A stretch of DNA of 64,000 bases from a virus. Taxonomy: Duplodnaviria; Heunggongvirae; Uroviricota; Caudoviricetes. A program made the position numbers and the translations under genes. Position 1 is the first letter of the stretch, and the number at the start of each line of letters is the position of its first letter. The notes beneath the pieces are model-generated. The model saw only the letters and a list, made by a program, of their open reading frames with translations, was not told the origin of the DNA and ran no database searches. Where the stretch lies: IMG/VR virus record IMGVR_UViG_3300027977_000006. One strand, given 5' to 3'. This document shows positions 4,772-14,253 of the stretch, in pieces.

Positions 4772-7122
4772 TATTTCATGCTAATATTTGAAATATTATT
4801 AATTTTGTTAACTGTCACTACGTTGCTAGACCAGTCTTTAACTAGGTCATTATGTGTTATTAAGAAGACTATTTCATACATATCTTTAATCTTGTCAAAC
4901 AATGCTTTCAGTTTCTCAATATTTTCAGGTGCCACTTTACCCAAAACTTCGTCAAAAGTTATAAAGTTAGGCATTGGTAGCGTTGACATCTTACCCAAGA
5001 CACCCCTTAAAGCCAAACTAGAGGCTGTTTTCTCAAAACCACTAGCTGATTTAAGCTGTTTTGAAACTTCATCCTTATTTATCAAGAACTGAACATCATT
5101 CTTATCATCTATAAATATCTCGACTTCAAAATCACAAACATCTTCCAATAATCTTTGAACTTCTGAATTTATTATTGGCAAAACAGACCTTAAGACCAAC
5201 TTGCTGATACCCTTCTTACCAACCAAATCAATATAAATTTTAAAGATTCTATCAATTTCCTCCTCTTTTTTAATTGTTTCAATTAGTTTTGTTTTGGTCA
5301 CAATGTTGTTTTTGTGGTTTTGAATATCGTTTGTAACCCTTTCTATCCTAGTAATTGCTTCGTCTTTTGTATGATTAAGTACAGATATATTTGTTTTAAT
5401 TTTACTTACTTCACCATCAATACGTTTGTTGTGTTCAATCGCTTCCAAGTTAAGGTTGTATTTCTTTAAATCATTCATCTTTTCGACAACTTTATTCCTT
5501 AAGGAACCAATTTCAACTTCCAACCTATCTCTATCTAACTCTAAACGATTCTTTTTATCTACTTTAACCTTGACTTCATTAAGTTCAGTTAAGTAGTCAC
5601 TAACTTCAGATAGTCTTTCTTCTATATGAGATACTTTCTCTTTATTATTTAATATTTCCTCATTATGTTTAGCTATATGTTCCGTATTGTCAACATCATC
5701 TAATTTACGATTACATGATTGACATATACCACCAGCTATCAAATCCTCAATTACTTTGGTCAGACGATTTATTTCAGCGCTATGAACAGCTTTTTGTGAG
5801 GTTAAATTATTAAATTCTTTGGTATACAAATGATGAAGGTCTTCATCGAAAACTATTTCACCATATGATGAAATTGTTTCATTCATTTCAGATATTTTTG
5901 TTTTTATTTCTTTACCTTTTTGAGTCAGTAAATCAACTTCACCTTGTAGTGCTGATGGGTTTAACGCAGAAATAGAAACATCAATTTTTTGTTTGCTGTT
6001 TAACAGTCTATCATTTTCATCGTTGTTCTTTTCAATATCTAATTTTGTATCAGTCAGTCTCTTTCTTAAGACTTCTTCAAGTTGTTCAGATTCTAAAATT
6101 TTATTGTTGTGTTCGTCAATTTCATTGGTAAGGGTGATGACATCAAAATCATTTGATTTTTTCTTTCTAGCAAAGTCATTGTACATCGTTCTGACAGCAG
6201 CTTCTTTAAGTTCAAGAATTTCCAAACCAATTAACCTAGTCAGAATTTTTCCAGACTCTGTTGTTGTTAAACCAATAAGGTCATCCAGATTTTTTTCTGT
6301 GGCTAACACCAACATTTCAAAATCTTTTTCACTACCAATAGTTTCTTTTAACTTTGCAGTTGTATTTTTAGCATCTTCTTCATTTAACTCCTCTTCTTCT
6401 CCATCTGGTAAAATTTTGTAGTAATTTACTTTGTTTACAACAGTCCAACCACCACCTTTTTTAGCGTTTCTTTTCATCTTACGCTCTATAATAGTCTCTT
6501 CACCTTCAATCTCAATCATTCCACGAACAACCAATTCGTTTTTGCCACTATAAGTGTTAAATATTTCTTCGTTTTTATCAGTTTTGGTTGTTGACCCATG
6601 TAATAAGAACTTTAATGAATCTATACACAATGACGTTTTACCACCAGTGTTGCTTGGGATTGAGTTTACCACCGTCAAACCTTTAAGTTTGCTAAACGGA
6701 ACATAATTATTTTCGCCAAATGAAAGAAAATTATCAACCATAATCCATTTAACAGACCATGACTTGTGTTGTGATTGTGTAAGGTCAATATTTAATTCAC
6801 CGTTAATTTTATCATCCAAAGCAATGATTCTATTAAAATCAACATTCTTGTTATCTCTAACAATCAATTCTTTCATCAAAGCACGTTGATAATTAACATC
6901 CATGATGTTTTCTATGCCAGCACCAATTATTTCAATACTATCACCATTTTCGCTAAATTTTACTGGTCTGTAAATAACATTGATATTGTTTTTGTTTACA
7001 CCATACTTGTTAGCAAAATAGTTTCTAACTTTGTTTTTACCTTCTTTAGAATAGTTTTCTGGTCTATCATCCCAATAAACTTTTATTCTAGAATAAGGCG
7101 ATATTAATAATTTGTCTTCCAT
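4771..7122 (-). CDS. sbcC: SbcC/Rad50/gp46-like SMC ATPase with ~115 aa N-terminal extension
   Basis: NFLSFG, Walker A-like SNTGGKT, coiled coils with CQSC zinc hook, signature ASGFE, Walker B ITFDEVLG, H-loop LITHN. Confidence 0.92.
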   Translation of the reverse strand: MEDKLLISPYSRIKVYWDDRPENYSKEGKNKVRNYFANKYGVNKNNINVIYRPVKFSENGDSIEIIGAGIENIMDVNYQRALMKELIVRDNKNVDFNRIIALDDKINGELNIDLTQSQHKSWSVKWIMVDNFLSFGENNYVPFSKLKGLTVVNSIPSNTGGKTSLCIDSLKFLLHGSTTKTDKNEEIFNTYSGKNELVVRGMIEIEGEETIIERKMKRNAKKGGGWTVVNKVNYYKILPDGEEEELNEEDAKNTTAKLKETIGSEKDFEMLVLATEKNLDDLIGLTTTESGKILTRLIGLEILELKEAAVRTMYNDFARKKKSNDFDVITLTNEIDEHNNKILESEQLEEVLRKRLTDTKLDIEKNNDENDRLLNSKQKIDVSISALNPSALQGEVDLLTQKGKEIKTKISEMNETISSYGEIVFDEDLHHLYTKEFNNLTSQKAVHSAEINRLTKVIEDLIAGGICQSCNRKLDDVDNTEHIAKHNEEILNNKEKVSHIEERLSEVSDYLTELNEVKVKVDKKNRLELDRDRLEVEIGSLRNKVVEKMNDLKKYNLNLEAIEHNKRIDGEVSKIKTNISVLNHTKDEAITRIERVTNDIQNHKNNIVTKTKLIETIKKEEEIDRIFKIYIDLVGKKGISKLVLRSVLPIINSEVQRLLEDVCDFEVEIFIDDKNDVQFLINKDEVSKQLKSASGFEKTASSLALRGVLGKMSTLPMPNFITFDEVLGKVAPENIEKLKALFDKIKDMYEIVFLITHNDLVKDWSSNVVTVNKINNISNISMK

Positions 7123-7568
7123 TATCCTTCTCCGTATAAGTCTTTTTTATGTTTATTTTTTTCTTCAGCTAATAATTTTTGAGTCATCTCTAATTCTTTA
7201 GATTTTGCATCTAGATTAATTTGAAGGTCTTTTATTCTTGATTTGGCTTCCGTTTGTTGCTCTAACAGCTTATCTTGTAGTTCGTTTATTTTATCAGCAA
7301 GTTCTTTAATTTGTGAATTGTCGGTCACAACAACTTCTTTCTCAACAATCTTTTCAACTGGAACTTCTACAATCTTTTCAACAGGTTTCTCAATAATTTT
7401 TTCAACAATTTTTTCAACTTCTATTGTTTTTTGTATTGGTGTTGCGCCAAACTTTTCTATTGTAAAACCTTGTTTGAGAAGCTTTAATGAGAATTCATCA
7501 ATATTTGTTATATTGTTATTACGACAATAATCCCAAATATCATTCTTCAGTTCCTTCGGAATTTCCAT
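7122..7568 (-). CDS. Coiled-coil protein with EKIVE(V/K)PV repeats
   Basis: VEKIVEKIIEKPVEKIVEVPVEKIVEKEV low-complexity repeat. Confidence 0.7.
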   Translation of the reverse strand: MEIPKELKNDIWDYCRNNNITNIDEFSLKLLKQGFTIEKFGATPIQKTIEVEKIVEKIIEKPVEKIVEVPVEKIVEKEVVVTDNSQIKELADKINELQDKLLEQQTEAKSRIKDLQINLDAKSKELEMTQKLLAEEKNKHKKDLYGEG

Positions 7569-7809
7569 GTTTTTCTATTTCTTTTAAAATTTCTTCTAAT
7601 TCACTTTCAGATTGATGTAGCATTAGAAACTCTTTTGTTGTTTCGTCAATTTCTAAATGAACTATTGGTTTATCTACTCTAGCGTAGTATTCATCAAAAC
7701 CAACAACCTCACCGTTTACCAAACCGTAATCATCAAATTCTTCTGGTAGTCTATTTAAGAAAGCTTTTAGCTCTTTTATTGTAATACCTTTTGTCGTTTC
7801 TTCACTCAT
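7540..7809 (-). CDS. Small acidic hypothetical protein
   Basis: 89 aa ORF overlapping both neighbours. Confidence 0.7.
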   Translation of the reverse strand: MSEETTKGITIKELKAFLNRLPEEFDDYGLVNGEVVGFDEYYARVDKPIVHLEIDETTKEFLMLHQSESELEEILKEIEKHGNSEGTEE

Positions 7810-8036
7810 GCGTTTGTTAATTTTTCATTTCCAGTCTCTAGGTCTTCTAGAGATTTTATTCTAAACTGATAATATGGATAATTGTTTTTTACATCGTGTT
7901 CTGTATATGTTTTCGTTTCAACATCCCACATTAAAAATCCATGTTTGCTTACATTCTCACCAAAATTCTGTTGTATTAGACTTCCAACATAACTTACTGG
8001 GATGATTTTTTTTATTTTAATTTTCTCTTTTTCCAT
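7806..8036 (-). CDS. sbcD: SbcD/Mre11 metallophosphoesterase, C-terminal fragment
   Basis: YVGSLIQQNFGE...HGFLMWD is the segment that normally follows GDIH in SbcD/gp47. Confidence 0.85.
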   Translation of the reverse strand: MEKEKIKIKKIIPVSYVGSLIQQNFGENVSKHGFLMWDVETKTYTEHDVKNNYPYYQFRIKSLEDLETGNEKLTNA

Positions 8037-8925
8037 ATTTTTTAATTTGTTTAAATAACTCGTATTTAAAATTTTTTTTATTTATTTCACACTCCCAAAA
8101 TCTAATTATATTATAATGATTATCTAAAGCTAATTTATTTTTAAATTCATCGTTTAATTTATTGTTTTTTTGTATTTCATTTAATAAATTTAAATCATTG
8201 TATTTTTTAGGGTTTCCATGCCAATAATCACCGTCAGCTTCAATTAAAAGATTTAAATCTTTTAAGTAAAAGTCGTAAGATTTAAATTTATTCTTTTCAT
8301 AAAAAATATCATATTGTGTTTCAAACTTAACCCCAGATTCAATTAATAATAAAGCTATTTTTTTCTCTATTTTAGTGTTTTTATTTTTTACTTTATTACC
8401 ATTTCTTAAAACACCAATAGATGTTAGACCATATTTTTTCAAACACGTTTCATCTCTTTTTATTGTTGTTTCTGGTAATCTACTAATGTTATCAACCCCA
8501 TATAATTCTAAATTTGTTTCTATTCTTTTTAAACAAGCTTCAGCATTTGTACCCACCCAAAAACCATTTTCTTCAAAAAAAATTTCTTGACCGATTTTTA
8601 CTTTTTCTTTATGTTCTTCGGTTTCCCATAATTTTTTCATTCTTTCAGAATTCCATTTTTTCCATTCATCAGTATGTTCAATATTATAAACTGGGTTACC
8701 TTCTTTAATATAAAGTTCTTTTTGATGAGAATCTTTACAAACTCTAGAACAGTATTTTTTACCATTATCTATTTTATTTTGTAACGTTTCAAACTCCTTG
8801 TTACATAGTAAACAATTAATTTTAACTCTATCAACTTTTAATTTTTTATAACCAATATGTTGACATTCTATCGAGCAATAAACTTTATTTTTTGTTTCTT
8901 TTTGACAATTTTTACAGTTATTCAT
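8017..8925 (-). mobile_element. Free-standing homing endonuclease, Vsr/DUF559-like (EDxHD) with N-terminal Cys-rich Zn modules
   Basis: CxxC..YCSxxC twice; TNLELYG/TCLKKYG repeats; YDFY..LLIEADGDYWHGNP..D..K..RFWE; lies between the two sbcD halves. Confidence 0.85.
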
Positions 8926-8933
8926 TTTCTCTA

Positions 8934-8979
8934 AATTTTTGTTGTATCATTATTTATTAATAAATATAACAACAAAATT
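8934..8979 (-). promoter_or_regulatory. Hairpin enclosing the TATTTAT motif upstream of the sbcD-associated endonuclease
   Basis: TTTTGTTGT(8937-45)/ACAACAAAA(8969-77) arms around the 16-bp palindrome TATTTATTAATAAATA (8951-66). Confidence 0.6.
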
Positions 8980-8989
8980 AAAAAGATAA

Positions 8990-9673
8990 TTATTCATCTA
9001 ACACCCACCCCATTTTTTCATATTCGTATAATTCTTCTTCATATATTTCTTTAGTTTCCTTAAAATTTAAAACACCCCTTTTATGGATATCACCACACAT
9101 AACCATATCACAACCTTCAAATATATCTAAATTATACCCATGTTCTATTTCATAACCTATATCAGTAGTTGAACCTATTAGCGGAGCATGAAATAAACCA
9201 ATATATGTTTTATCATCACCGAAAGCAAGTCTTGCAGACTCAATATCTGGTCTTAAATTACCTTCAAAAATAGAATAAACACACCATACTATATTATCAT
9301 CCAAATAACATTTGCTCTCTTTAAAAAAGTTTATATTGTTGTCTGGTAGAAATTGAACCATCGGTGTGATACTGTCCATACGGTCTTTATTATTCTCTAA
9401 AAGGTCATGATTGCCAGCTATTATAATAACTGGTGCTATCTTTTCAAGAGACCTTAAAAGCCATGTACCTAGAATAAGTTGTTCGTTAGAGATTACGATT
9501 TTTTGGTGAACTAAGTCACCAGCTATCACAATTCTTACTTCATCTCTTTGATAATCTTTTACTAGTTCAGATATATCGTATAAGAGCTTTTTAAACACGT
9601 CTTTATACTCATCGTGAAGTCTATATGTTCTGATATGAATATCAGCCATATGTATAATTTTTTTTACTGTCAT
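8990..9673 (-). CDS. sbcD: SbcD/Mre11 metallophosphoesterase, N-terminal fragment (start reassigned to MTVKK)
   Basis: Motifs ADIH, AGDLVH, AGNHD, LFH, GDIH; stops 30 aa after GDIH; promoter at 9688-9719. Confidence 0.9.
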   Translation of the reverse strand: MTVKKIIHMADIHIRTYRLHDEYKDVFKKLLYDISELVKDYQRDEVRIVIAGDLVHQKIVISNEQLILGTWLLRSLEKIAPVIIIAGNHDLLENNKDRMDSITPMVQFLPDNNINFFKESKCYLDDNIVWCVYSIFEGNLRPDIESARLAFGDDKTYIGLFHAPLIGSTTDIGYEIEHGYNLDIFEGCDMVMCGDIHKRGVLNFKETKEIYEEELYEYEKMGWVLDE

Positions 9674-9687
9674 TAGTATACTTTTTA

Positions 9688-9719
9688 CAAATATACTAAA
9701 AAACTCAGTAAAACACAAC
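9688..9719 (-). promoter_or_regulatory. Bacteroidetes-type promoter of sbcD
   Basis: GTTG-N20-TATATTTG. Confidence 0.72.
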
Positions 9720-9723
9720 TAAT

Positions 9724-9903
9724 TTAATAAATAAAATCGTCACGGTCAAAATGGTCGTCTTTTCCTTGATTTTTATCGTGGAATTTTTTACTAATTTCTT
9801 CACGTTTTTTCTTGTAGGCTTCTTTTAATGTTTTATCTTCCTTCCAAGGCTTTTGTTTAATAAACCTACCCAAAAATTCTCTTAAGTTTGTAACCTTTTT
9901 CAT
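9724..9903 (-). CDS. Small basic hypothetical protein, 59 aa, not in the ORF track (MKKVTNLREFLGRF...DDFIY)
   Basis: Hand translation; ATG 3 nt after the glycosyltransferase stop; fills the gap. Confidence 0.6.
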   Translation of the reverse strand: MKKVTNLREFLGRFIKQKPWKEDKTLKEAYKKKREEISKKFHDKNQGKDDHFDRDDFIY

Positions 9904-9905
9904 TG

Positions 9906-10919
9906 TTAATTATTTATTGTTGAGAGCCAAATTTTCTTGGCTTTTTTATTGTACCATTTAAGATATAATTTTTGAATAATTGACACTAATTTTGGATTAT
10001 TGTACGCAAAACGTAATTTACTAAAAATATCGTCATGCGATGTTGGTGTCGCTTTCAAAAAGTTTGGCATCCAGTCAATATCTTTTGAAACAACTATTGG
10101 TCTATCAACCGAAACAACATCAGCAGTTACTATGTTGAACGACTCCGTTAACGATACCTGCATACAAACATCCATCGTAGCTAAAACTTTTAAAAACTCA
10201 AAATGGTTGTACCAACCATGCTCAACCAATGTATGGGGTGAATGTTCAAATAGAGCTTGTAAATTTTTCAACACATTGTTTCCGTTTTGTTCTAATCTAC
10301 TTGAATTGATGTGGAACCTTAATTCTTTATTAATAGACTCGGAAAAATCAATAGCAACCAAAGCTTGTTGGTAAATATTTTTAAGCGGTCTAACAGCACC
10401 AAAACAACCAATATCTATGGTGTTATCGTCTTTATTTACATTTGATTTAACGATTTTCTTTGGAAAATAAACATTAGGTAGGTATGTGAATGTTCCGAAA
10501 GGAAACGCAATAGACAATTGCTGTGTTAATTCTATTGTATTAGGCGCTAATTCAACCACTCCGTTTTTAATTAATGTATACTCACCAATCCATTTAGTGG
10601 CTAGTCCTTCCATACTTAAAAATGGAGCTTTAGAATGAATTCTTACTATCCATCTTCTATCTTTGTGTCTTGAAATGTTAAATAATTCATGAAACTTATA
10701 TGGCGGCACCCAAAGAGCCTCAATCACCACAATTGTCGGATTGTATTCAGTAACAACCCTATCTATTGAATTTGAATCTGGGATGGAAATTAGCTTCGCC
10801 TCATATCCTTTTTTTTTTAAAAATGAAACAACAAAAGAAGCGGAATTAAACAAACCAGAAGTTATACCATAAGAGTCTTTCACTTTATCAGAACTAATGA
10901 AAAGAATTTTATTTGTCAT
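9906..10919 (-). CDS. GT-B fold glycosyltransferase (GT4-like)
   Basis: IGCFGAVRPLKN and SLTESFNIVTAD nucleotide-sugar binding motifs. Confidence 0.8.
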   Translation of the reverse strand: MTNKILFISSDKVKDSYGITSGLFNSASFVVSFLKKKGYEAKLISIPDSNSIDRVVTEYNPTIVVIEALWVPPYKFHELFNISRHKDRRWIVRIHSKAPFLSMEGLATKWIGEYTLIKNGVVELAPNTIELTQQLSIAFPFGTFTYLPNVYFPKKIVKSNVNKDDNTIDIGCFGAVRPLKNIYQQALVAIDFSESINKELRFHINSSRLEQNGNNVLKNLQALFEHSPHTLVEHGWYNHFEFLKVLATMDVCMQVSLTESFNIVTADVVSVDRPIVVSKDIDWMPNFLKATPTSHDDIFSKLRFAYNNPKLVSIIQKLYLKWYNKKAKKIWLSTINN

Positions 10920-10977
10920 AGTTTTTAAATATAATTATCTATTAAAAGAGTAAAGTAATAAAAAAAAGAAAATAATT

Positions 10978-12765
10978 TTATCCGTTTTTTATAATATTAT
11001 AGTGATGCATCTCAATAAGCTGCTTAGCCTCTTTTTTAAGATACATTATTTGTATTTTTTGAAATGATTGTTTTTCTTTGTCCCAATACAAAACATAAAT
11101 CTGTCGACACTTTCTTTTAGGGAACTCTAACTCGTACATATAAGCATATACACTTAACTGCAAAGTGTACACAGACCATTGACAAGCTTGAAGATGCTCA
11201 AAAGGTTTTAATAGCGTTTCATAACCATATGGGTTATAAAAATTAAAAACACGATTTGTATTATGTGTTACAATAAAACTATGACCGAATAAAAATGTAT
11301 GTTTTGGGCTCTTGACCTCAATACATATCGTTGGCTCTGATTCTACTTTATTAACTGATACAATATTTATATGATGACAAAAACTATTTCTAAATTCAAT
11401 ATTTATATCTTGATTTCTAACTAAAAATGGGTTTAAATAATGTGAGGTAAAACAAACATCGTAAGCAATAAATGTTTTACCACTTAATTTTCGGTTAGTT
11501 GTTATGATTGTTGCTTTAAGCCCCAAGCTAGACACTAACATATTTATTGCATTGGCTTGCCATTTTCTGGTAGTTGACATGACAAACCTATTTCTTTTTT
11601 TATTATAATACCCATCAGCATCCATAAGCCCTCTTAACACATCTAATCTTTGATTGAAAGATGAATTTAAAAAAACATCTGGTAATTGTTTATTTTTTAA
11701 TACTCCAAGCTTATTCAATTCATGTGTCAAACCAAAAATAGTTCTAGTACTAGCCAAACCAGAACCACCACCAGAGATATCCTCCCCAATTTTATAACCT
11801 CTTTTTTCTATTTCAGACCACACATTTTCATCCATGTTTGTTATTTTCCCATCAGCTGAATGTCCATCACCTAACCAAACACCAAAAACATATGGGTCTA
11901 TTGGTAAATTAGCTATATCGATTTCTAATGGTCTAGCGCAAACAATTTTAGGTATTTTCCAAGAATATCTTTTTTTACCTTTTGGTAAAGTTTTCATGTA
12001 ATCAAATAACTCTATTGTTGTCATAACAACATCTTTATATTTTTTTTCTCTTAAAAAAGAAACTAACCATCTATGTTCAAAATCAGAAACTATTTTTTCA
12101 CCAGTATCAAAAGTAATTTCGTAACAATCTTTATTTTTAATGTCTGATATTGCTTTAATTTCTGTTTGACACCCATCACTATCAAAAACTTTGTCTTCTA
12201 ATGTCAATGTTCCCATTGTTTTCCACCCATTAGACGTAAATATTGGAGTGTTTAATGGTAACCCTTTATAATCAGCAACATCAAAAAAGACATCATTTAT
12301 ATCAATAATCAAGTCTGAAGTACCAGCAAGTTCGTATTGTTCAGAAAACAATATTCTTTCTGGCCACATCGCATCGCCTTCTTCAATATTCAACGCATTG
12401 TAACCGTCAATAACTTTTTGTTCAAAGATACCCTCTTCATTGTCTTCTGGAAAATACCACTTATTCGCAAGTAAATAACGCTCAACAATATCATGAACCT
12501 TGCTACCGTATACGTTAGCTTCATCATTCAACAACTGCCAATAATCCAAAATTTGTTGTTGAGACAAACCAATATAGCGTTCTTGTTTAACGTTATCAGG
12601 TTGTCTTGTAATAGCCAACGAAACACCTTCAGCATCAAAATGTGGTTCAATTGATGACAAAGTAGTTGTAACTGATTTGTATATCTTACCAGTCTCTCTA
12701 TGATGATATTTATGTTGTATCGGTTCTAAGTAAATTATTGATTCCCACTTTTTAATTTTAGCCAT
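10978..12765 (-). CDS. PD-(D/E)XK exonuclease-like protein containing an intein (start reassigned to MAKIKKW)
   Basis: SVTT, GSKVH, PERILF, LAGTSD, DYK|T, YTLQLSVYAY motifs; promoter 5 nt upstream of the ATG. Confidence 0.85.
   Translation of the reverse strand: MAKIKKWESIIYLEPIQHKYHHRETGKIYKSVTTTLSSIEPHFDAEGVSLAITRQPDNVKQERYIGLSQQQILDYWQLLNDEANVYGSKVHDIVERYLLANKWYFPEDNEEGIFEQKVIDGYNALNIEEGDAMWPERILFSEQYELAGTSDLIIDINDVFFDVADYKGLPLNTPIFTSNGWKTMGTLTLEDKVFDSDGCQTEIKAISDIKNKDCYEITFDTGEKIVSDFEHRWLVSFLREKKYKDVVMTTIELFDYMKTLPKGKKRYSWKIPKIVCARPLEIDIANLPIDPYVFGVWLGDGHSADGKITNMDENVWSEIEKRGYKIGEDISGGGSGLASTRTIFGLTHELNKLGVLKNKQLPDVFLNSSFNQRLDVLRGLMDADGYYNKKRNRFVMSTTRKWQANAINMLVSSLGLKATIITTNRKLSGKTFIAYDVCFTSHYLNPFLVRNQDINIEFRNSFCHHINIVSVNKVESEPTICIEVKSPKHTFLFGHSFIVTHNTNRVFNFYNPYGYETLLKPFEHLQACQWSVYTLQLSVYAYMYELEFPKRKCRQIYVLYWDKEKQSFQKIQIMYLKKEAKQLIEMHHYNIIKNG
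11260..12264 (-). mobile_element. Class 3 intein (335 aa, Gly start) with LAGLIDADG endonuclease
   Basis: GLPLNTPI..EHRW..GVWLGDG..RGLMDADG..PTICIEV..VTHN|T; WCT triad. Confidence 0.88.
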
Positions 12766-12770
12766 ATTCG

Positions 12771-12810
12771 CAAATATACGATAGTTTGTTATGGTATGCA
12801 AGTATTTATA
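12771..12810. promoter_or_regulatory. Back-to-back divergent promoters
   Basis: Minus CTTG-N20-TATATTTG (12771-12802) abuts plus-strand TATTTATA (12803-12810). Confidence 0.7.
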
Positions 12811-12822
12811 ATAAAAGTTACC

Positions 12823-13320
12823 ATGAGTCAATTAGTTAAAAAATTATTACGTGAAGCTTTAACTGTACCATCGTTTAGGGTACCAAAAGATATAAAATTT
12901 AGCAATGATGAAAAACTAGCAATAAAAAATGTTAGTTGGGAAGACCTTAAAATAGAAGATTTAGGTGGTTCTGGAAATATTGCTCATTTAGGTGTCAACC
13001 TACCATTTGAATCAGCCGCATCGGATGCTATTGTTGTTGATATTCAAGTGATTAAAGATATGATATATCAAATACATATGCATTTGCCAGAAGATTTAAG
13101 AGGATTAGGGTTAGGGTATAAAATATACAAAGCGGTTATACATGATTTAGGACATTTGTACTCTGGTAAAGGTAGACGATTAAACCAAATGGTTGCAAAA
13201 ATATGGGATAAATTAAAAAACGACCCAGATTTTGAATGTGTTTCAAGTGAATTAGGCGATTTGTGCATGATTAAAAATCATCCTAACAAAGAAGAACTAA
13301 CTCAATTCGTTGTAGGTTAA
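12823..13320 (+). CDS. GNAT-like acetyltransferase; only credible plus-strand gene (start MSQLVKKLLREAL)
   Basis: Acetyl-CoA motif A LPEDLRGLGLGYKIY and AKIWDKL; TATTTATA 12 nt upstream. Confidence 0.65.
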   Translation: MSQLVKKLLREALTVPSFRVPKDIKFSNDEKLAIKNVSWEDLKIEDLGGSGNIAHLGVNLPFESAASDAIVVDIQVIKDMIYQIHMHLPEDLRGLGLGYKIYKAVIHDLGHLYSGKGRRLNQMVAKIWDKLKNDPDFECVSSELGDLCMIKNHPNKEELTQFVVG

Positions 13321-14253
13321 TTGTCTGGCACTCATTAACAGTTTGACAATACCTTTTGGACCTAACTTTTCGTATATTTTTGATGGGTCGTAACCTTCAG
13401 GGCATTTGGCTAATTTTATCCTACCATAAAGATTTCCAAAATTTAGCTGTCTGTATAAATTTACCGCATCTTCATAAGCATCGTCATCAAGGACTATGAC
13501 TATGTAGCTAGTGGCTCTTTCATAAATCAAATCTAGTAGTTTTGGTGATATAAATTTACCCAATAAAGGTATTGAATTCGGTGTGACAATATGGTCAGTC
13601 ACACCTTCTACCAAATAAATGGTCGCATCAAAGTTTATTTTACCTTCATTAAAAATTATTTCTTGTTTTTCCGCTTCTGGGTTTAGATACTTTAATTTTG
13701 TTTTTTCCTTGGCGAACCATCTTGCAATAAAATAGTTTAATTTTCCTTCAGAATCGTAAGACGGAATGATTATTCTATTAAAGTATGTTCCTCGTATTGT
13801 GTAACCAATTTGGAACTCTTTTATAATCTCATCGGTTATTCCACGTTCTCTCAAGTATCTCAAAGCCAAATCAGCTTTGTAATCCATGCTTGAACACAAT
13901 GATAATTTTTTATAACCTTCTGGTAGTGTTACTATAATCTCTTTGTGTTCCTTGTCGTGTGTTTCATTAGCATCTGGCTTTACCAGCAAATAATCACGAA
14001 TATTCCTTGGTGATGCATACCTTTTAAGTAGCTTCATTACTGGGCCATGCATGTTGTTGGTGTCTTGACAAGCCCAGCATTTAAACACATTCCTTTGATA
14101 ATTAATCTCTAGATTGCCTTTTCCATCACCTTCTGGCATTCCTTTGTCCTCTGAACACGCAGGGCAATCAAAAGATACTTGACCAGTATCTTCATTATGT
14201 TTTCTATGTTCGCCTAGAAACCCTTCTAAAATGTTAACCAATAAATGTGACAT
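13297..14253 (-). CDS. dnaG: DNA primase (Zn finger + TOPRIM)
   Basis: CPAC..CWAC; YLRERGI; RIIIP; KYLNP; LVEGVTD; VLDDDA. Confidence 0.9.
   Translation of the reverse strand: MSHLLVNILEGFLGEHRKHNEDTGQVSFDCPACSEDKGMPEGDGKGNLEINYQRNVFKCWACQDTNNMHGPVMKLLKRYASPRNIRDYLLVKPDANETHDKEHKEIIVTLPEGYKKLSLCSSMDYKADLALRYLRERGITDEIIKEFQIGYTIRGTYFNRIIIPSYDSEGKLNYFIARWFAKEKTKLKYLNPEAEKQEIIFNEGKINFDATIYLVEGVTDHIVTPNSIPLLGKFISPKLLDLIYERATSYIVIVLDDDAYEDAVNLYRQLNFGNLYGRIKLAKCPEGYDPSKIYEKLGPKGIVKLLMSARQLTYNELS

Follow-up and report, generated by a model that had tools for sequence, protein, structure and literature searches.

Candidate mobile homing-endonuclease cassette in a phage SbcD-like gene and the probable complementation of its two pieces

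The SbcD/Mre11-like nuclease gene encoded on the minus strand of a 64,000-nucleotide stretch of a Caudoviricetes genome (IMG/VR virus record IMGVR_UViG_3300027977_000006; the whole analyzed stretch is hereafter called the window) was found in two open halves, separated by the gene of a free-standing, Vsr-like endonuclease and ending at the break in short tails of opposite charge. The explanation that we consider likely is that the gene was left in pieces by a mobile homing-endonuclease cassette, that the two pieces would complement each other's strands, and that the module formed by the tails would come from an insert native to some SbcD lineages. The locus represents a well-preserved case of a selfish endonuclease residing inside an essential gene, which it leaves viable, without RNA or protein splicing. 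Added here is a comparative series of alleles (canonical, bearing a cassette with one of two nucleases, decayed, split but endonuclease-free, and fused in frame), which constitute natural constructs bearing on the need for a ribbon-plus-helix of about 31 residues, on the cut site and on the permanence of insertions.

Anatomy of the divided SbcD gene

The N-half (227 amino acids, aa; 8993..9673, minus strand, with its ATG at 9673 and its stop at 8990-8992 in the list of open reading frames, ORFs) matched Pfam PF00149 (Metallophos) with 44.1 bits against a cut-off of 21.5, and its translation holds all the phosphoesterase motifs (ADIHI, AGDLVH, AGNHD, LFHAP and GDIH). The C-half (76 aa; 7809..8036, minus strand) comprises the last core strand, the motif SLIQQNFGE and a short capping part. 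Both halves aligned to consecutive regions of the PHROG profile phrog_100 (SbcD-like), at profile positions 27-220 and 225-276, respectively; homologs of the N-half share its start Met, and the C-half terminates like all homologs (...KLTNA/KITNL). The nuclease-plus-capping fold was tested on an uninterrupted relative (locus L006) rather than on the two window pieces, and Foldseek searches with its AlphaFold2 model retrieved SbcD (7dog), Mre11 (5dny/3av0) and E. coli SbcD with probability 1.0 and template modeling (TM) scores of 0.5-0.6.

Within the N-half, GDIH occupies residues 194-197, and the protein ends 30 aa downstream in ...KETKEIYEEELYEYEKMGWVLDE. Its last 21 residues (207-227, TKEIYEEELYEYEKMGWVLDE; 8993..9055, minus strand), with a net charge of about -6, are absent from canonical homologs. 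A non-coding spacer of 64 nucleotides (nt; 8926-8989, minus strand) separates the stop of the N-half from the start of the endonuclease gene (302 aa; 8020..8925, minus strand), and the C-half begins with MEKEKIKIKKIIPVSYVGSLIQQNFGE at an ATG located 20 nt inside the 3' end of the endonuclease ORF. The first 10 residues of the C-half (MEKEKIKIKK; 8007..8036, minus strand; net charge about +3) are likewise absent from canonical homologs. The order of genes on the minus strand is SbcD N-half, spacer, endonuclease, SbcD C-half, two small ORFs and SbcC. An earlier, preliminary description of this DNA, made from the sequence alone, had reported an acidic tail ending 30 aa after GDIH, a restart with a basic head inside the last codons of the endonuclease, opposite charges at the new ends, two intact halves and about 65 nt of non-coding flank with neither intron nor intein; it agrees with the anatomy found here, and both tail sequences given there were exact. 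Alignment to the uninterrupted homologs of 269-272 aa, which it had proposed as a check, sized the added residues at 21 + 10.

The locus is without intron and without intein. Searches of positions 7000-13500 against Rfam yielded nothing at E ≤ 1, and the non-coding DNA at the break amounts to the 64 nt upstream of the endonuclease, with none downstream; in the relative L009 the two halves lie 4 nt apart, in different frames. A group I intron carrying the endonuclease ORF was rejected on account of the missing Rfam match, the 64 nt available and the 4-nt gap of L009. Regarding split-intein features, no Pfam intein match was obtained, the N flank (21 aa) begins with Thr-Lys-Glu, the C flank (10 aa) has no HN before IIPVSY, and the intein nucleophile residues are absent. 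A split intein of the type described by Dassa was also rejected, the flanks being too short for a HINT fold and the junction residues missing.

Allele states among relatives

Searches with blastn of window positions 7000-10000 against cultured phages gave no match, and tblastn retrieved only four distant ones, to a Microcystis phage and uncultured huge phages. The family database search returned about 2700 members, mostly of 270-271 aa. Scans of viral contigs identified 66 loci with the N-half, and a pattern for the tail motif gave 21 further matches. The contigs of the relatives reach up to 380 kb, and they therefore derive from giant phages. As side observations on the family, the phage group of the window carries a short SbcD (~270 aa) without the usual C-terminal Rad50-binding part, and more distant homologs (P0150-P0270) are mostly single SbcD-SbcC fusions of ~1040-1100 aa.

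In most relatives the gene is uninterrupted and encodes 269-272 aa, GDIH being followed by a short hairpin (GDIHKRQVFNHKG-ILVAYPSSLIQQNFGE). Split alleles were found in several states. A Vsr-like endonuclease of the same type as in the window (type A) separates the halves in L001, L012/13, L054 and L071/78/79, and a second type (type B, 294-301 aa) does so in L003/5, L073 and L075. Only a remnant of the endonuclease persists in L061 (type-A 3' end) and L084 (type-B 3' end, with an alignment score of 56 vs. a shuffle maximum of 49), and nothing lies between the halves in L009/10. Finally, uninterrupted genes that carry the extra residues within one chain were detected in L006/L007 (304 aa, from two independent metagenomes) and P0032 (303 aa). 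Tails were present in every split allele and in no canonical one. At least 10 divergent alleles (N-halves 51-83% identical) show this split together with these tails, all with open halves, and the arrangement is therefore not due to chance. In L009, L061 and L084 the endonuclease is absent or has decayed, yet the gene is still split; decay of the halves, which the preliminary description had named as a possible outcome, was looked for, and the halves were open in all split alleles, these three included. In L062 (5001-8531), SbcD and SbcC are both broken over several frames, probably due to sequencing errors or because the copy is decaying.

The tail/head motif pair was not found elsewhere in the window. 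Among the viral-contig matches to the motif, 16/21 fell in SbcD loci and the remaining 5/21 were internal chance matches in unrelated genes. A general docking tag is accordingly not supported, the pair having been found only at SbcD genes.

Mobility of the cassette

On a tree of the SbcC gene (59 rows, unrooted), the insert-bearing alleles appeared scattered, with 9 changes of state, 8 imposed by well-supported branches, compared with a mean of 11 for shuffled states. Each of these alleles was nested among canonical ones, and the window grouped with the canonical L002/L004 at 100% support. Comparison of sister pairs at the DNA level showed 1066-1101 nt replacing 23-49 nt of hairpin-coding sequence: 1066-1077 nt in place of 23-44 nt for L003 vs. 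L043 (93% identical) and L012 vs. L045 (94%), and 1101 nt in place of 49 nt for the window vs. its nearest relative, L002 (78-82% identical). Based on blastn against L002, the cassette of the window extends over 7977..9077 and includes the tail codons, stop, hairpin spacer, endonuclease and head codons. The cassette, tails included, is thus present or absent between near-identical genomes.

In the ~150 nt that precede the junction on its upstream side, sister identity falls from 93-100% to 63-78%; on the downstream side it is high directly from the junction. Along the upstream tract the window is 87-93% identical at the nucleotide level to the cassette carrier L001 and 70-75% to L002. This pattern of identity around the junction indicates a homing-type transfer with an upstream co-conversion tract, which according to sliding-window identities probably corresponds to 9078..9230 (minus strand) in the window.

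Structure, conservation and relatives of the tail module

The uninterrupted protein of L006 reads ...HKQTMEVDKENLERYIKIGWVVDDDKNSAKINIKKVIPICYSGSL..., and therefore the acidic tail and the basic head of the window are the two sides of an insert of ~33 aa. The AlphaFold2 model of this protein (304 aa, 97-row alignment) had a mean predicted local distance difference test (pLDDT) of 97.3; residues 211-240 showed block means of 90-95, the lowest in the model. It consists, in this region, of a strand (200-211), a helix (212-220), a second strand (224-227), a loop (228-232) and a third strand (233-244). The end of the window N-half corresponds to L006 residue 227 and the start of the C-half is in register with residue ~229, which places the break in the exposed loop of an extended hairpin, with the C-piece supplying the last core strand. 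In terms of these elements, the N-tail comprises the last part of the long strand together with the helix and the short GW-x-(I/L/V/M)-D strand, and the C-head comprises the start of the long second strand (L006 K233-K238 onward). The preliminary view of the extra residues as a strand-plus-helix adaptor thus held with respect to shape, given the helix and strand pairing of the L006 model, but not with respect to exclusivity, as this element is not unique to the break. Likewise, the "new termini" do arrive with the endonuclease in close relatives, but they form one continuous segment in L006/L007 and P0032.

Comparisons of the tails were anchored on motifs by script, as MAFFT had misplaced them in the half-proteins. 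In ten split alleles, tail plus head gave proportions of nonsynonymous (pN) and synonymous (pS) differences of 0.19 and 0.58; for the 64-codon stretch up to and including GDIH the values were 0.21 and 0.64. Mean pairwise identities were 0.53 (tail) and 0.63 (head), vs. 0.64 and 0.60 for the cores. Based on both sets of values, the tails are constrained as protein, and purifying selection on them is as strong as on the catalytic core. Both GW and the (I/M)K(I/M)KK run were conserved in 10/10 split alleles, and the uninterrupted L006 has INIKK at the latter position.

A survey of inserts in 150 representatives at the 50% identity level showed a short hairpin in about 107 of them and 4-5 N-halves ending in a tail. 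Uninterrupted proteins with a spacing of 43-60 residues accounted for 13/150, and 12 of these 13 were SbcD-SbcC fusions of ~1080-1100 aa. Many of the long-spacing inserts share the pattern ..EL..Y...G(W/F)x(I)...loop...KxxKKxP. When scored with a hidden Markov model (HMM) of the insert from the near clade, 2/13 exceeded all 1300 composition-matched shuffles and 5/13 exceeded their 95th percentile. A common origin with the inserts of the fused SbcD-SbcC proteins is probable from this resemblance.

The endonuclease and the spacer hairpin

As a single sequence, the endonuclease of the window matched Pfam Vsr below threshold (E 6.7e-5; 23.1 vs. 27 bits), and searches of the PDB with the single sequence or with a 5-sequence profile gave nothing useful. 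A 34-sequence profile matched Vsr (1cw0, E 8e-5; 1vsr, E 1e-3) and I-Bth0305I (3r3p, E 4e-3), in agreement with the Vsr-like character proposed earlier. All 34 homologs have H236 and D259, and at least 90% have E229 and D231 (motif LIEADGDYWH...ND); by alignment, these four residues correspond to the EDxHD composite motif. The N-terminal part of the protein contains CxxC zinc-ribbon-like repeats, and its C-terminal part is the Vsr-like (EDxHD) domain. Homologs bear the JGI name very-short-patch-repair endonuclease and contain Vsr, DUF559 or NUMOD3 domains. The AlphaFold2 model of the endonuclease, built from 5 sequences, was poor (pLDDT 55).

Type-B endonucleases occupy the same site between the same tails (L003:5723-6628; L075:1585-2469; L073:193-1077, minus strand). 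Both types share their N-terminal ~110 residues, which include the CxxC repeats (28% identity, E 2e-5), and differ in the C-terminal domain, for which type B gave a sub-threshold TnsA-like match. This combination suggests that nuclease domains may have been swapped on a shared DNA-binding module.

The spacer contains a hairpin (8937..8977, minus strand) with the stem UUUUGUUGU/ACAACAAAA and an A/T-rich loop bearing a TATTTAT/TAAATA-like motif, and its folding z-score was -2.6. In 5 type-A cassettes the spacer sequence is highly conserved, and one compensatory pair was seen. The hairpin is probably a transcription or translation control element for expression of the endonuclease; hairpins upstream of such endonuclease genes have been described (Dassa 2009; PMC2677866). 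The 64-nt spacer was also observed to be far better conserved among type-A cassettes than the endonuclease protein.

Proposed explanation and alternatives

According to the explanation favored here, a cassette of ~1.1 kb would insert in the beta-hairpin after GDIH, taking the place of ~23-49 nt of ordinary alleles, and this replacement of the hairpin would presumably remove the endonuclease's own target, both activity and target being predictions. SbcD would then be expressed as two polypeptides of 227 and 76 aa, with neither RNA nor protein splicing, which most likely reassemble non-covalently by strand complementation, the final core strand of the nuclease coming from the C-piece. The ~31 extra residues would lengthen the broken hairpin into a long two-stranded ribbon with an acidic helix cap and a short GW strand, the chain break lying in the exposed loop of this helix-ribbon module, and the cassette-borne halves of the module may thus extend and stabilize the interface. 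Among close relatives, the module travels with the endonuclease as co-converted flanking sequence. As uninterrupted SbcD genes also contain the module, in the form of a continuous insert, it does not seem to have originated at the break.

Several points weigh against this explanation. The "gain" of the cassette is a parsimony result on unrooted trees, with SbcC taken as a fair proxy of the genome. The AlphaFold2 model represents the naturally fused allele L006, not two separate pieces, and the making and association of two polypeptides are predictions from sequence and model. Furthermore, the activity and target of the endonuclease are predicted from sequence, the assignment of its nuclease domain depends on weak profile matches (E 8e-5 to 4e-3) and a poor model, and the similarity of the module to the inserts of fused SbcD-SbcC proteins is weak.

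Among the alternatives, covalent joining of the halves via a group I intron, a split intein or ribosomal bypassing is the least credible, to the point of being almost discarded. Relatives do carry split inteins elsewhere, in SbcC; at this locus, however, there is no Rfam match, the non-coding DNA is limited to 64 nt while the endonuclease ORF overlaps the C-half, and the tails, of ~31 aa, are devoid of the junction residues Cys/Ser/Thr or His-Asn; uninterrupted proteins retain these tails and fold well in their presence. The gap of 1 kb also far exceeds known bypassing distances. That the split gene is a dead or dispensable pseudogene is very improbable as well, since nothing beyond the interruption itself speaks for it, whereas 10 or more divergent alleles have open halves and a pN far below pS, and the gene stands within a conserved SbcD-SbcC operon. 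The extra residues could also be neutral baggage, if the pieces assembled without them through a break between neighboring core strands. Canonical proteins, which make up most of the about 2700 homologs, work without the module, and the tails of the split NrdA of phage Aeh1 are not needed for heterodimer formation of its two pieces. This possibility is nevertheless judged improbable in view of the selection on the tails, which equals that on the catalytic core, the maintenance of GW and (I/M)K(I/M)KK across two endonuclease types and endonuclease-less alleles, and the fact that no split allele without tails was found.

More weight, albeit still as a minority view, can be given to a de novo origin like the one proposed for Aeh1 NrdA-a/b: the ends of the inserted DNA would have given rise to the tails, and selection would have favored these as docking peptides of opposite charge. 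The uninterrupted forms (L006/L007, P0032 and perhaps the fused SbcD-SbcC proteins) would then be re-fusions that followed loss of the endonuclease. Among close relatives, tails come in every case with an endonuclease, present or past, and the alleles form a graded series from the window (full) through L061/L084 (remnant) and L009 (4-nt gap) to L006 (in-frame fusion). L006/L007 are, in addition, nested among canonical alleles on the SbcC tree, and L006 and P0032 have different linkers (DDKNSA and ENTSED, respectively), as would be expected of independent fusions. On the other hand, 12 fused SbcD-SbcC representatives, at only 29-36% identity, contain inserts that match in position, length and motif (..EL..Y...G-W/F-x-I ... 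K-x-K-K-x-P), some of them similar above chance, and a well-packed helix and ribbon (pLDDT 90-95) exceeds what random read-through DNA would be expected to yield.

A further reading of the 33-aa helix-ribbon module, as a portable, non-splicing "staple" that travels with at least two kinds of homing endonuclease, is advanced only tentatively, and we regard it as rather unlikely. If it were true, an essential nuclease gene could be broken harmlessly, and the module would become a permanent insertion after decay of the endonuclease. The series from the window to L061/L084, L009 and L006 would then record a whole life cycle, and homing endonucleases would be a source of lineage-specific protein insertions, possibly including those of fused SbcD-SbcC proteins.

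Comparison with known systems

The preliminary description had considered the arrangement a candidate undescribed one, which does not stand in the light of the literature: both the type of locus (2009) and the concept of assembly tails (2011) were already published, and the window is a further example, not a new mechanism. An SbcD-like gene fractured by a Vsr-like endonuclease without a split intein was reported from Lake Gatun, in the Global Ocean Sampling (GOS) data (Dassa 2009, NAR 37:2560; PMC2677866). The extra residues there, 25 C-terminal and 9 N-terminal, are flanked by consecutive SbcD motifs, and the 3' end of the endonuclease overlaps the downstream half. The window coincides with that locus in gene type, in the Vsr-like ORF between the halves, in the absence of an intein, in the 3' overlap, in the upstream hairpin and in its freshwater source; the extra residues number 25+9 there and 21+10 here, the likeness being judged by the description in the paper. 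That report concerned one locus, and uninterrupted insert-bearing alleles, endonuclease-less splits, a second nuclease type and movement were not reported in it.

The NrdA of Aeromonas phage Aeh1 is split into NrdA-a and NrdA-b by mobE, reportedly as described by Friedrich in 2007. In this mobE-split protein, oppositely charged tails were found to be essential, charge-driven assembly was proposed, and such tails were suggested as a general way to neutralize fragmentation (Crona 2011, NAR 39:1381; PMC3045599). Both cases share an essential gene of DNA metabolism, a free-standing endonuclease, short tails of opposite charge and the absence of splicing. The Aeh1 tails, however, have no database matches and are thought to be foreign DNA, whereas those of the window match a continuous insert in L006/L007 and P0032. 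Besides, the Aeh1 tails are needed for dimerization of the heterodimer and not for pairing of the pieces, whereas those of the window are predicted from the model to pair as a ribbon. The polarity of charge is reversed as well, the N-piece being the acidic one in the window.

As regards the endonuclease, the EDxHD homing endonuclease family was characterized through I-Bth0305I (PDB 3r3p; Taylor 2011, PMC3239194), with which the window protein shares a Vsr-related C-terminal nuclease domain, the composite E-D-x-H-D motif and a separate N-terminal DNA-binding region. I-Bth0305I is nevertheless intron-encoded, whereas the endonuclease of the window is free-standing and carries CxxC zinc-ribbon-like repeats rather than clear NUMODs, and the similarity is weak (E 4e-3). 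Genes fractured by split inteins of the Dassa type, including the SbcC of relatives, show the same half-endonuclease-half order, endonuclease family and phage group; their flanks ligate the protein, whereas those of the window, of about 31 aa in total, are unable to form a HINT fold.

Neighboring genes and further elements

The partner of SbcD in the window is an uninterrupted SbcC/Rad50-like ATPase of 783 aa (4774..7122, minus strand), which matched phrog_77 (SbcC-like; E 1e-46) and for which no Pfam match was obtained. It lies downstream of SbcD in a conserved SbcD-SbcC operon. In relatives, the SbcC/Rad50-like gene was observed to contain a mini-intein of ~143 aa in the P-loop (GGK|C...SHN|T), in a continuous frame in L012 (7502-10285) and L009 (6476-9259), and split by a free-standing endonuclease gene of 338-348 aa in L043 (6445-10652), L001 (8287-10677) and L048 (6943-9221), where a very short N-intein fragment of ~30 aa is left. 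The SbcC of the window has no intein.

No family match was obtained for either of the two small ORFs between SbcD and SbcC. The ORF of 148 aa (7122-7568, minus strand) is present in nearly all relatives; its first ~45 residues are strongly conserved and are followed by variable VEKIVEK-type repeats and a coiled-coil. The ORF of 89 aa (7540-7809, minus strand), which overlaps the C-half by ATGA, is poorly conserved and missing from several relatives. Two genes upstream of SbcD, the ORF at 10978-12831 (minus strand) contains a LAGLIDADG-type intein (...LRGLMDADGY..., ...VTHN|T), a further selfish element in a region already dense in them.

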